Shown in pieces: positions 5,708 through 8,520 of a DNA stretch of 64,000 nucleotides. Position 1 is the stretch's first letter. Each line of letters opens with the position of its first letter. Both the position numbers and the translations under genes were made by a program. The notes under the pieces were generated by a model. That model was not told where the DNA came from, did no database searches, and worked only from the letters and a program-made list of their open reading frames with translations. The stretch lies in sequence record PZ738962.1, one strand, 5' to 3'. The stretch comes from a phage.

Positions 5708-8520
5708 GCGTGATTGAAGGGATTAACGCAATGGCGACGGATGAACACCCGCTACATTTAGCGCATCCGTCTACACTAGAAACTAAAATTGATTCAAACG
5801 GCATTGAATGGATTTTATCAAAGCATGATGATAAATGGTATCCTAAAAAGTTTTCTGACTATCTGAAATTAAACAGACCGCAGAAAATAAGGATGCAAAG
5901 CACTGATCCAACAAATTATAAGTTCTTTAAAGATAGTGACAATATTCGCACGCGGTATATGCGATTAAAGAACTTGCGAAGGGCGAATATTAAAACTCAG
6001 TATACCCCTGAAATGATCGCAGAGTGGAAACGATGCCGTAAAGATATTGTGTATTTTGCCGAAACCTATTGCGCAATTACACACATCGACTACGGTACAA
6101 TCAAAGTACAATTGCGTGATTATCAGAAAGATATGCTTAAGATCATGCATGAAAACCGCATGAGCGCACATAAACTCAGTCGTCAGCTAGGTAAAGCACT
6201 TGATGTTAATACTCCTATTCCTACCAGCGATGGGTTTAAACGTATGGGGGATATTAAAGAAGGTGATCAGATCTATGCGCCTAATGGTCGTTTAGTTAAT
6301 GTTGTATATGCAACGGAATACCAGTATGATCGCAAGTGCTACGAAGTTGTTTTAGATACTGGCGCTAAAGTTGTTGCTGATGCCGATCATATCTGGACTG
6401 TATACGAAAAAGTTGGCAACAAACATGTCAAGCGTGATGTTACAACTCAGGAAATGGTCGATAAGGGTATTACTACCAAAGGTCAATCCAGATTTAAAAT
6501 CGCTAAGACTAAACCGATTAAGGGAGAAACTAAAGTTCTTCCTGTTGATCCGTATACTTTAGGTTATTGGTTAGGTGATGGTCACACTGATGCAGCACGA
6601 ATCACCCACCATAAGGACGATAGCGGCATTCTGACGCATTTAAACGAACAAGGCTATCATACATATACTTTTGCAGATAAACGCAATAGCAACGTTCTCA
6701 CAACGTCTGCGCATGGGTTATGGGAAGGACTTAAAACCGCTGGCGTTGCTGGCAATAAGCATATCCCTATGGAATACCAATTCGCTGATATTGATCAGCG
6801 AACTGCATTACTGCAAGGTATCATGGATTCTGACGGATGCATCAATAAAAATGGTTATGCTGAAATTACATTAAAACTGAAACCGCTTATCGATGACATT
6901 TATTCGCTGTTGTGCGGATTGGGCTTTAAGCCGAAAATGAAAGAAAAAGTGGTAAAAGGTACTGTATATTACAGAATTTCATTTAATGCATATGCAGATA
7001 AGGGTGTGTGTCCGGTTCGAATGAAGCGTAAGAAAGCAAATCTTATTAATTCTTGCGAAGATACAAGAACAGATTTTCTTTTTATTCGTGAAATTAATCC
7101 GGTTGAATCTCGTCCGGTAAAATGTATTCAGGTTGACAGCGAGGATAAACTATATCTGTGCGGTCGTGAATTTATTCCGACTCATAATACTACCGCTGTA
7201 GCAATATTCCTTGCTCACTACGTTTGTTTTAATAAAGACAAAGCGGTAGGTATACTGGCACACAAAGGGTCAATGGCGGTTGAAGTTCTAGAACGTACTA
7301 AACAAGCAATTGAACTATTACCAGACTTCTTACAGCCAGGTATTGTTGAATGGAACAAGAAATCAATTGTTCTTGAAAACGGTTCAAGTATTGGTGCTTA
7401 TGCGTCGTCTCCTGATGCTGTGCGTGGTAACTCTTTTTCGTTTATCTACATTGATGAATGCGCATTTATTCAAAACTGGACGGATTGTTTCCTTGCAATT
7501 CAACCAGTAATTTCTTCCGGTCGTGAATCTAAAATGATCATGACCACGACTCCGAACGGGCTTAATCACTTTTATGATATCTGGCAATCGGCTATTGATG
7601 GTAAAAGTGGTTATGTTCCATATGAGGCGGTTTGGCATTCTGTTAAAGAACGTCTTTACAATAAAGCTGATATATTCGATGATGGTTATGAGTGGTCATC
7701 TCAGGCGATCGCCGGATCTAGTCTTGAGCAATTCTTACAGGAACATAACGCTGAATTTTTCGGTAGTTCCGGTACTCTGATCAGGGCAACCACACTATCA
7801 AGATTATCCTTTATTGACGTTGTTAATGATAACGGGTTTTATCAGTTTGAGAAACCGAAAGAAGGTAGAAAATATGTTGCTACACTAGATTGCTCAGAGG
7901 GTCGAGGACAAGACTATCACGCAATGCAAGTAATTGATATTACTGAATTTCCTTATAAGCAGGTTGCAGTATATCACAGCAATACTACGTCACATTTTAT
8001 ACTACCGGATATTGTCTTTAAATATCTCATGATGTATAACGAATGTCCAGTTTATATCGAGCTAAATAGTACGGGTGTATCTATTGCTAAGTCTCTTGCG
8101 ATGGATCTTGAATATGATAATATTATTTGCGACTCATTCATAGATCTAGGGATGAAACAATCCAAAAGATCTAAAGCAATGGGATGTTCGGCACTAAAAG
8201 ACTTAATAGAAAAAGATAAGCTGATCATTAATCATAAAGGAACTATTCAGGAGTTGCGCACATTCTCCGAGAAGGGGGTAAGCTGGGCGGCAGAAGAAGG
8301 TTTTCACGATGATTTGGTCATGAGTCTGGTAATATTTGGTTGGTTAACAACTCAAGAAAAATTCGCCGAATATGCAGGAAAAGACGAAATGCGGATCGCC
8401 TCCGAAATATTCCGAAAGGAATTAGATGAATTGGGGGAAGAATACGCGCCCGTGGTAATATATGACGGTGCAAACGGCATCGAAGAATATAGGCCGCGTG
8501 AAGGTCTAACAATGATATAA
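5704..8520 (+). CDS. 17: terminase large subunit gp17, interrupted in frame by an intein
   Basis: 938 aa against about 610 for T4 gp17; flanks collinear with T4 gp17 (...[10 protein letters not shown]...SRQLGK | [28 protein letters not shown]...); C-terminal nuclease region conserved. Confidence 0.9.
6196..7188 (+). mobile_element. intein (331 aa) with LAGLIDADG homing-endonuclease motifs, inserted in the gp17 Walker A / P-loop
   Basis: starts [13 protein letters not shown] (block A with Ala1); DADHIW (block B His and Trp); LGYWLGDGH and [11 protein letters not shown] (two LAGLIDADG motifs); VKCIQV (block F Cys); ends IPTHN followed by Thr; excision restores SRQLGKTT. Confidence 0.75.

Follow-up and report, generated by a model that had tools for sequence, protein, structure and literature searches.

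We propose with considerable confidence that positions 6196–7188 of the window, a 64,000-nucleotide stretch of phage DNA (sequence record PZ738962.1), encode a class 3 intein of full length, within which a LAGLIDADG homing endonuclease is nested. The host gene is gene 17 of a Krischvirus (RB49-like, T4-type) coliphage, where the intein separates the Lys and the Thr of the Walker A motif, and from where we propose that it both splices and homes. The coordinates of all features are collected in Table 1.

An in-frame insertion splits the Walker A motif of gp17

Gene 17 encodes a gp17 (large terminase, TerL) precursor of 938 aa and 106.9 kDa, in which Pfam recognizes Terminase_6N (residues 496–698, E 4e-39) and Terminase_6C (residues 727–898, E 3e-23). 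The first-pass annotation had described a 938-aa gp17 with an extra 331 aa between SRQLGK and TTAVAIF, splitting the terminase Walker A motif, and this description proved exact: SRQLGK ends at precursor residue 164 and TTAVAIF begins at residue 496, with 331 aa between them. When aligned to the intein-less gene 17 of RB49, the window gene differs by a single in-frame gap of exactly 993 nt, positioned at ...CAGCTAGGxAAA/ACTACCGCT... (the slash marks the insertion point). As judged by the RB49 and T4 gp17 alignments, the insertion lies between the invariant Lys and Thr, inside lsrqlgk/tt of Walker A, which corresponds to K166/T167 in T4 chain numbering.

The annotation had suggested a comparison with T4 gp17, and this was made with the exteins. 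Deleting the insert in silico leaves a 607-aa gp17; T4 gp17 aligns with it over its whole length, and both RB49 gp17 and the T4 gp17 structures 3ezk/3cpe (E 3e-281) are collinear with it. This extein-only protein has the layout of a T4-type large terminase, with an N-terminal ATPase domain (Walker A SRQLGKT, Walker B) and a C-terminal RNase H-like nuclease domain; the C-extein contains the remainder of the ATPase domain, with the Walker B sequence FIYIDE intact, together with the nuclease domain.

Each carrier genome contains a single gp17 copy, and as the carriers were isolated as plaque-forming phages, they must make functional gp17. From the interrupted P-loop, the single gp17 copy and the plaque-forming carriers we infer, on sound grounds, that packaging needs splicing. 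We find barely credible a precursor that does not splice, be it a tolerated domain insertion, an inactive gene, or two halves made via a self-splicing intron or internal initiation, since 331 residues part the Lys from the Thr of Walker A, the phages are viable isolates with one gp17 copy, the reading frame is continuous and stop-free, no Rfam family (group I/II introns included) reaches threshold across the window, and every splicing residue is intact and conserved. A group I/II intron in place of an intein was rejected on the same continuous frame and on the lack of any hit at the Rfam gathering threshold in the whole window.

Table 1. Features of gene 17 and its intein in the window (intein residues are numbered from Ala1).
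Feature	Position	Strand	Basis or remark
Gene 17 precursor ORF, stop codon included	5704..8520	+	ORF call; Pfam Terminase_6N and Terminase_6C
N-extein, gp17 residues 1-164	5704..6195	+	Sequence; RB49 and T4 gp17 alignments
Walker A residues SRQLGK, end of N-extein	6178-6195	+	Lys164 = -1 residue = T4 K166
Intein, 331 aa, 37.3 kDa, Ala1 to Asn331	6196..7188	+	RB49 gap, homologues, AF2, Foldseek
N-terminal HINT part, intein residues 1-105 (boundary approximate)	6196..6510	+	Alignment to 6bs8/6rix residues 1-69; AF2 beta-strand pattern
Block A	6196-6234	+	Sequence; within N-terminal HINT part
Ala1 codon GCA	6196-6198	+	Intein position 1; sequence
Cys48 codon (precursor Cys212)	6337..6339	+	Alignment RKCY/RPCY; equivalent of M. 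smegmatis DnaBi1 Cys48
Block B, DADHIW	6379-6396	+	Sequence; 6bs8/6rix alignment
Block B His65 (B:10), Ile66, Trp67 (B:12, W of the WCT triplet)	6388..6396	+	6bs8/6rix and family alignments
LAGLIDADG homing-endonuclease domain, intein residues ~106-290 (boundaries approximate)	6511..7065	+	Pfam, PI-SceI match, fold
LAGLIDADG motif 1, LGYWLGDGH	6559..6585	+	Presumed catalytic Asp128 codon 6577-6579; D nearly invariant
LAGLIDADG motif 2	6808..6840	+	Asp211 and Asp213 codons 6826-6834
C-terminal HINT part, intein residues 291-331	7066..7188	+	Aligns to 6rix 111-145 and 6bs8 112-139
Block F, VKCIQV	7117-7134	+	Sequence; 6bs8/6rix alignment
Cys310 codon (block F:4; precursor Cys474), predicted initiating nucleophile	7123..7125	+	6bs8/6rix alignment; 115/115
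Block G, IPTHN	7174-7188	+	Sequence; 6bs8/6rix alignment
Thr329 (G:5, T of WCT), His330, Asn331 (cyclizing), Thr+1	7180..7191	+	6bs8/6rix, family and T4 gp17 alignments
C-extein, residues 165-607 of mature gp17	7189..8520	+	Pfam; T4 gp17 alignment

The insert has a HINT fold with a nested LAGLIDADG domain

In a phmmer search of the PDB, the best solved relatives of the insert are the class 3 DnaB mini-inteins MchDnaB1 (6rix/6riy) and MsmDnaB1 (6bs8) (E 2.5e-18 to 3e-17), with matches that span both intein residues 2–69 and 297–331; residues 120–270 match PI-SceI. The intein and the DnaB inteins read, respectively, vadadhiw and vadaqhqw in block B, pvkciqvd and pvrcvevd in block F, and ipthn and vpthn in block G. 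The AF2 model (pLDDT 94.7, pTM 0.92) shows a HINT fold with a nested LAGLIDADG domain. Its top Foldseek match is PI-SceI (E 7e-20, TMq 0.74), and the modeled splicing lobe superposes on the class 3 MsmDnaB1 and MchDnaB1 inteins with TMt values of 0.80–0.85. Homologues of the intein number 228 database proteins at E<=1e-3, and tblastn with the intein returns 738 phage records at E<=1e-10. Judged from sequence, the similarity of the insert to inteins is far beyond chance.

The HINT lobes had no match in Pfam, and NCBIfam gave only weak sub-threshold matches, far below the cut-offs, to intein-containing radical SAM and RNR models. The splicing domain is therefore identified from PDB matches in sequence and fold and from the family alignment, and not from curated models.

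The first-pass annotation had called the insert an intein with two LAGLIDADG motifs. The fold, the in-frame insertion and the C-terminal His-Asn followed by Thr+1 agree with that call, and the six motifs quoted in support of it all lie where it had placed them. The annotation had named a missing intein block alignment as evidence that would speak against an intein; this was checked, and blocks A, B, F and G align to solved inteins.

Signature residues assign the intein to class 3

Class 3 inteins are defined by the lack of an N-terminal nucleophile and by a WCT triplet: Trp B:12, Cys F:4 and Thr G:5 (Tori et al. 2010, PMC2807308). In the window intein position 1 is not Cys, Ser or Thr, the WCT triplet is complete, the His at B:10 is kept and the +1 residue is Thr. 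Ala1, His65, Trp67, Cys310, Thr329, Asn331 and Thr+1 match the class 3 inteins 6bs8/6rix residue for residue. Thr+1 (precursor Thr496), the predicted second nucleophile, is also the Walker A Thr, equivalent to T4 T167. We analyzed conservation in a family alignment of 115 sequences, comprising the window intein and 114 homologues that are 31–69% identical and come from different host proteins. The Trp, Cys, Thr and Asn are each invariant (115/115), as are His65 and a Ser or Thr at +1, and Ala1 is found in 110 of the 115 sequences.

The annotation had read a class 3 pattern from Ala1, Trp, Cys and Thr, and the solved structures and the published definition bear this out, with one clarification: the Thr of the pattern is Thr329 in IPTHN, the WCT Thr, whereas the Thr at +1 is a further, separate requirement. 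Based on these alignments, class 3 is the right assignment, and the branched-intermediate chemistry of the class 3 inteins studied so far would be expected to apply. Ala1 alone also fits class 2 (KlbA-type) inteins (PMC2807308), in which case Thr+1 would attack the N-terminal junction directly, without a block F Cys branched intermediate. Such a route is very improbable: class 2 inteins have no WCT triplet and rely on a Cys at +1, whereas here the triplet is complete and the +1 residue is Thr, and the window intein is homologous to experimentally and structurally characterized class 3 inteins.

By analogy with studied class 3 inteins, the proposed splicing pathway would run as follows. In the 107-kDa precursor no P-loop could form, and the packaging ATPase would be inactive. 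The thiol of Cys310 (block F:4; precursor C474), aided by His65 and Trp67, would attack the Lys164–Ala165 bond to give a thioester-linked block F branched intermediate; the N-extein would then move to the hydroxyl group of Thr+1 (T496), and cyclization of Asn331 would free the intein. Finally, an O-to-N acyl shift would rebuild SRQLGK-TT and yield a 69.6-kDa gp17 with the architecture of RB49 and T4 gp17.

Splicing might in addition be conditional, with the Cys48/Cys310 pair acting as a redox- or zinc-sensitive switch that delays or gates the packaging motor, as in M. smegmatis DnaBi1. Cys48 is present in the intein and in 113 of the 115 family sequences; in DnaBi1 a disulfide between Cys48 and the block F Cys forms under H2O2, and zinc inhibits splicing (PMC6195587, PMC7360933); and the P-loop insertion ties ATPase activity strictly to splicing. 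Cys48 is, however, needed for DnaBi1 splicing itself (PMC6195587), so its conservation need not mean regulation. Moreover, most Krischvirus phages do without the intein, so that it has no essential regulatory role, and the E. coli cytoplasm is reducing. We therefore regard a switch as improbable.

The endonuclease domain is intact and under purifying selection

Pfam LAGLIDADG_3 matches the insert above its gathering threshold (E 1.6e-6), and Foldseek matches the endonuclease domain of the AF2 model to PI-SceI, PI-PfuI and I-DmoI. The domain is of the double-motif kind, with two helices that each contribute a conserved acidic residue to an alpha-beta-beta-alpha-beta-beta-alpha pseudo-dimer fold. 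In motif 2, D216 is invariant and D218 nearly invariant (family alignment numbering), and K188 (NKHIP) is invariant or nearly so. None of 8 intein alleles contains a frameshift or a deletion. The intein is presumably an active nuclease: once freed, the 37-kDa protein would be a LAGLIDADG endonuclease that, in a mixed infection, cuts the intein-less gene 17 at ...CAGCTAGGGAAA/ACTACCGCT..., and recombinational repair of the cut empty site would copy the intein in.

The distribution of the intein is patchy. It is present in 12 phage records from three Krischvirus species and absent from about 50 (a carrier share of about 20% of Krischvirus records). ECD7, kvi and MIZ4 are among the carriers. SAP/TB34, the relatives with the most similar backbone (99.2% over 25 kb), are without the intein, and the target site is intact in intein-less gene 17 alleles. 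Alleles with the intein and alleles with an intact empty site come from samples of one and the same type: among Danish wastewater phages, kvi carries the intein and kaaroe does not. A synonymous marker, GGT, lies 4 nt upstream of the insertion in 7 of 8 intein-plus and 0 of 6 intein-minus alleles. Both domains are under purifying selection, with dN/dS values between intein clades of about 0.1 for the whole intein and 0.07–0.10 for the endonuclease domain, the latter from small counts (3–5 nonsynonymous vs 8–18 synonymous). These low values point to a functional, mobile element, and together with the patchy distribution, the intact empty site and the linked GGT marker they lend homing indirect support. 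As the intein has not swept the genus, homing could be inefficient or the nuclease weak.

An intein that has kept class 3 splicing while its LAGLIDADG nuclease is inactive or decaying, and that spreads by vertical inheritance and general phage recombination with no homing, would account for the low carrier share and for the persistence of intact empty sites. T4-type phages recombine heavily, so that mosaicism near the intein needs no nuclease, and few substitutions underlie the dN/dS of the nuclease domain. We nevertheless consider this reading unlikely, because: (i) neither LAGLIDADG motif is damaged, and the acidic residues and conserved Lys are retained, all being invariant or nearly so across the family; (ii) the 8 alleles are free of frameshifts and deletions; (iii) neutral decay would bring omega in the nuclease domain to about 1; and (iv) the nearest backbone relatives differ in intein presence or absence. 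A functional, homing intein thus remains the preferred reading.

In sister phages, a second, split intein is found at the gp17 Walker B motif. The gp17 of vB_Eco_SAP or kaaroe is made in two halves, of 583 and 459 aa, which trans-splicing would be predicted to join into a 69.6-kDa protein. In ECD7, kvi and Makalu the C-extein contains a strongly divergent patch, with 69 differences in extein nt 531–838, that alters FIYIDE-C to FIYIDE-A. We rejected this patch as a co-conversion tract left by the arrival of the P-loop intein, as it is centered on Walker B (nt 762) and as each of the intein clades includes alleles that have it and alleles that lack it. It is no closer than the window allele (52/70 vs 53/70) to the extein of P0001, a metagenomic gp17 described below. 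More likely, the patch has to do with the split Walker B intein, which is a different mobile element.

Novelty and significance

Phage terminase P-loops have been known to harbor class 3 inteins since 2010, with a further description in 2016 (PMC2807308, PMC5050341). The combination of class 3 intein, terminase and P-loop is thus already known from other phages, and nothing in it is conceptually new. In the open-access literature searched we found no prior report of an intein in RB49, in Krischvirus or in a coliphage gp17/terminase, and a 2024 paper states that no inteins have been reported in coliphages (PMC11162368). The intein is unannotated in all 12 carrier GenBank records; in FL15, FL04 and PTE-Eco09 the presence of the intein has caused the terminase to be mislabeled as DnaB helicase. 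In 2011 Tori and Perler reportedly listed class 3 inteins and proposed a phage origin for them.

The gp17 intein resides in cultivable coliphages with near-isogenic intein-less relatives (RB49, Sf20 and SAP), which makes it a tractable natural system. In it, class 3 splicing could be measured within the native host protein; phage crosses would give access to homing and co-conversion; and a fitness cost or conditional packaging control, if any, could be assessed. T4 gp17 is the best-characterized viral DNA-packaging motor, and E. coli with its T4-type phages is a classic genetic system for homing endonucleases.

A more speculative view, to which we give little weight, is that the intein goes beyond a passive parasite and is a conditional switch on a T4-type packaging motor, operated through Cys48/Cys310 by redox state or zinc; the precursor might then join and disturb gp17 pentamers, including those of a co-infecting intein-less phage. 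If this were true, the intein and the split Walker B intein of the sister phages would make Krischvirus gene 17 an arena of competing mobile elements that shape the packaging enzyme.

Comparison with known systems

With the class 3 DnaB inteins (Msm DnaBi1, 6bs8; Mch DnaB1, 6rix/6riy; and that of mycobacteriophage Bethlehem) the window intein shares a catalytic set, partly at the same positions: Ala1 (Pro1 in Bethlehem), Cys48, His65, Trp67, the block F Cys, Thr-His-Asn, and a Ser or Thr at +1. The DnaB inteins likewise interrupt the P-loop of an ATPase, and their +1 residue has two roles there, in splicing and in coordinating Mg2+ (PMC6195587). Their host protein is a helicase, whereas that of the window intein is a T4-type terminase; Msm and Mch DnaB1 are mini-inteins that lack a nuclease, in contrast to the window intein with its complete LAGLIDADG domain; and sequence identity is limited to the ~105 aligned residues of the splicing lobe.

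The mycobacteriophage TerL inteins share the host function, the ATPase domain of a large terminase, and the 'classic' P-loop site of TerL1-a, GK/T, is the same (PMC5050341). The TerL1-c, -d and -e inteins are class 3 (Kelley et al. 2016, PMC5050341); TerL inteins tested at sites b, c, e, f and g splice, and those at b and c show endonuclease activity against intein-less partner phages (PMC5050341). By tblastn, mycobacteriophage TerL inteins are 33–39% identical to the window intein. The two differ in terminase family, as the window gp17 is of the Pfam Terminase_6 (T4 gp17) type and the mycobacteriophage set is mostly Terminase_1; the only Terminase_6-like intein in that set, TerL6-f, occupies the C-motif and not the P-loop. 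They also differ in host, E. coli for the window phage and Mycobacterium for the TerL set, with an intein identity of about 35%.

PI-SceI (the yeast VMA1 intein) and PI-PfuI have the same overall two-domain architecture as the window intein and very similar LAGLIDADG motifs (GYWLGDG, GIMDSDG). PI-SceI is, however, a class 1 intein, with a Cys1 nucleophile and Asp at F:4, and its splicing chemistry is therefore unlike that of the window intein; it also has an additional region for DNA recognition and exceeds the window intein in length by about 120 residues.

P0001, a metagenomic T4-like gp17 deposited as 'MAG: terminase large subunit ... Clostridium sp.', has the same junctions, LSRQLGK/ALDV...IPTHN/TTAVAI, with an intein 69% identical to that of the window and exteins 60–76% identical. 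The sequence is partial, comes from a short contig and has no isolate behind it; it places the allele outside Krischvirus.

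Position and boundaries of the gene 17 insert

The window derives from an RB49-like, T4-type coliphage (genus Krischvirus); by megablast, Krischvirus genomes match gene 17 and the first 25 kb at 95–99% identity. Gene 17, which encodes the large terminase gp17, lies between the small terminase gene, whose 3' end overlaps its start, and the tail sheath gene. In the 938-aa product, Pfam detects Terminase_6N from residue 496 onward only, and Terminase_6C at residues 727–898. The first-pass annotation had proposed an intein within the Walker A motif, and its coordinates hold exactly: SRQLGK runs up to residue 164, TTAVAIF starts at residue 496 and 331 residues intervene, and every motif that it quoted was located where claimed. 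Alignment with gene 17 of RB49, whose gp17 has 607 aa and lacks the insert, reveals a single gap, which spans precisely 993 nt and separates ...CAGCTAGGTAAA from ACTACCGCT... The position within gp17 was confirmed by the end-to-end alignment obtained without the insert to the T4 gp17 structures 3ezk and 3cpe (E about 1e-280); in T4 numbering, the insert separates K166 from T167 in the Walker A motif SRQLGKT.

Features of the window (nucleotide positions)
Feature	Position	Strand	Remark
GIY-YIG (seg-like) homing-endonuclease gene	3607-4362	+	free-standing, 251 aa; between genes 14 and 15
Small terminase gene	5210..5707		
Gene 17 ORF	5704..8520	+	
Gly -2 codon	6190-6192		4 nt upstream of insertion site
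Intein	6196..7188		331 aa
Counterpart of recoded patch	~7230-7535		extein nt 531-838
Variable region with small hypothetical ORFs	~38900-44000		downstream of alt

A full-length intein with a nested endonuclease

When all PDB chains were searched with phmmer, the best matches to the insert were three "replicative DNA helicase" mini-inteins (E 2.5e-18 to 3e-17), 6rix and 6riy (Mycobacterium chimaera DnaB1) and 6bs8 (M. smegmatis DnaBi1), which match in two pieces, intein residues 1–69 and 297–331; PI-SceI matches the middle of the insert (residues 120–270). Both DnaB inteins are structurally characterised members of class 3 (PMC6195587; PMC7664689). A highly confident AlphaFold2 model built with 38 homologues (pLDDT 94.7, pTM 0.92) is matched over its whole length by PI-SceI, the TliVMA/PhoVMA inteins and PI-PfuI (Foldseek against the PDB, E 7e-20 to 1e-13, TMq about 0.7), and its splicing lobe by the class 3 mini-inteins (TM normalised to target 0.80–0.85). 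Based on these matches, on a Pfam LAGLIDADG_3 score exceeding the gathering cut-off, and on the lack of a self-splicing intron (no Rfam family was detected across the whole window), we conclude that the insert is a full-length intein, in which a HINT splicing domain harbors a double-motif LAGLIDADG endonuclease.

Class 3 residues and proposed splicing

Class 3 inteins are defined by a position 1 without Cys, Ser or Thr, and by the WCT triplet, i.e., Trp, Cys and Thr at position 12 of block B, position 4 of block F and position 5 of block G, respectively; the +1 residue is usually Ser or Thr (Tori et al., PMC2807308). The class 3 pattern suggested by the first-pass annotation is supported by the full residue set, each residue aligning to its counterpart in 6bs8/6rix: Ala1, His65 (B:10), Trp67 (B:12), Cys310 (F:4), Thr329 (G:5), His330, Asn331 and Thr+1. 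His65 and Trp67 carry identical numbers in the founding Bethlehem DnaB intein.

We compared the intein with 114 database homologues (intein extracted, 31–69% identical), hosted by three terminase families, dCTP deaminases and PD-(D/E)XK nucleases. The B:10 His, B:12 Trp, F:4 Cys, G:5 Thr, the last-residue Asn, and Ser or Thr at +1 are each present in all 115 inteins, window included, while position 1 is Ala in 110, position -1 is Lys in 114 and position 48 is Cys in 113. In DnaBi1, splicing depends on Cys48, which oxidative stress links to the block F Cys through a disulfide (PMC6195587).

By homology to studied class 3 inteins, Cys310 (precursor C474) would attack the Lys164–Ala165 bond to form the block F thioester branch, the N-extein would be transferred to Thr496 (+1), cyclisation of Asn495 would set the intein free, and an O-to-N shift would restore SRQLGK-TT. 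Thr+1, which is the Walker A Thr, would thus also serve as splicing nucleophile. A P-loop interrupted by 331 residues, a single gp17 copy per genome and the status of the carriers as plaque-forming isolates together strongly imply that the carrier phages need splicing to package DNA. The precursor should have a mass of 106.9 kDa, and splicing should convert it into a gp17 of 69.6 kDa and a free intein of 37.3 kDa.

Of the full-length relatives closest to this intein (database homologues P0010–P0120; 31–36% identity), most reside in environmental dCTP deaminases at the site G-K/S-S (slash, insertion point); their hosts are mostly metagenomic, with a few labelled Acidimicrobiia, Ilumatobacteraceae or Chloroflexota MAGs. 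The same class 3 plus LAGLIDADG intein family has thus spread to an enzyme without a P-loop, at a sequence mimicking GK[ST].

Distribution and mobility

The intein occurs in 12 records from 11 phages (AV108, MIZ4, MIZ5, FL15, FL04, ELT3, kvi, ECD7, PTE-Eco09, Makalu_002 and Makalu_003), with 96–100% protein identity across three ICTV species, and about 50 Krischvirus records are precisely without it. The intein-less group includes vB_Eco_SAP and TB34, the nearest backbone relatives of the window (99.2% over 25 kb), and the target sequence is unbroken in intein-less alleles. A synonymous GGT (versus GGG) at the Gly -2 codon, found in 7/8 intein-plus and 0/6 intein-less alleles examined, could mark co-conversion or hitch-hiking with the intein. 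The two intein clades differ at ~45 nt, with dN/dS about 0.10 overall and 0.07–0.10 in the endonuclease domain, and the reading frame is free of frameshifts in all eight intein alleles. The LAGLIDADG acidic residues D128, D211 and D213, together with K188, are invariant or nearly so across the family; these are presumably the catalytic positions, by analogy with D218, D326 and K301 of PI-SceI. Distribution, target, selection and motifs are thus compatible with an active homing endonuclease, and the rival reading, in which the intein splices but its nuclease is dead, seems rather improbable. Outside the genus, the nearest relative is the intein of a partial metagenomic T4-like gp17 (69% identical, identical junction); the next-closest intein in the isolate collection has only 41% identity.

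Other insertions in and around gene 17

Across 48 kb, the window differs from RB49 by two large insertions only, the intein and the seg-like gene, which lie <2 kb apart. The latter matches the I-TevI DNA-binding domain (E 1.4e-7) and, under the cut-off, the SegE GIY-YIG domain (E 8e-4; both Pfam); RB49 and ECD7 lack it and SAP/TB34 have it. Several deletions and rearrangements relative to RB49 downstream of alt (blastn pieces out of order, gaps of ~0.4 and ~0.3 kb on the RB49 side) are ordinary plasticity of the T4-type hyperplastic region.

A different gene 17 insertion, of 1288 nt, is located at the Walker B site FIYIDE/C (FIYIDE/CAF) in seven T4-like coliphage records, including SAP (OZ034687; 2263–3550 of the gene 17 locus compared here), TB34, kaaroe, JK32, G2494 and phiS. 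Gene 17 then consists of two ORFs: the first ends in a ~25-aa intein N-fragment (CVSGLTKVTL...) joined to a ~300-aa TnsA/endonuclease I-like PD-(D/E)XK nuclease, and the second starts with a 105-aa intein C-fragment (...NNVESHN/C) that matches 6dsl, the consensus engineered atypical split intein CatC (E 5.5e-13). Judged from sequence, the element resembles a naturally occurring, atypically split intein together with its homing nuclease (a 'fractured gene'), here in coliphages that can be cultured; the annotations read only hypothetical protein or terminase, and no record examined combines it with the P-loop intein. The intein-plus alleles of ECD7, kvi and Makalu contain a heavily recoded patch centered on the Walker B site, with 66–69 differences in ~300 nt versus near-identity elsewhere and the Walker B Cys replaced by Ala; the window itself is RB49-like. 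The patch may make these alleles resistant to the Walker B element.

Relation to known inteins

None of the 12 carrier GenBank records annotates an intein. Three (PP400778, FL15; PP358550, FL04; PQ306574, PTE-Eco09) label the gene "replicative DNA helicase (DnaB)"; this annotation error evidently arises from the resemblance of the intein to DnaB inteins. In the open-access literature searched, no published report of an intein in a T4-type gp17 was found, and a 2024 paper describes inteins in coliphages as not reported (PMC11162368). Seven intein sites were catalogued in mycobacteriophage terminases, among them a "classic" site at which the invariant Lys and Thr of the P-loop are separated; the tested TerL inteins splice, and two cut intein-less partner alleles (Kelley et al. 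2016, PMC5050341). LAGLIDADG inteins have also been noted in terminases of Rak2-like jumbo phages. This kind of element is therefore already known; what is new is its occurrence in a T4-type gp17, in E. coli phages that can be cultured.
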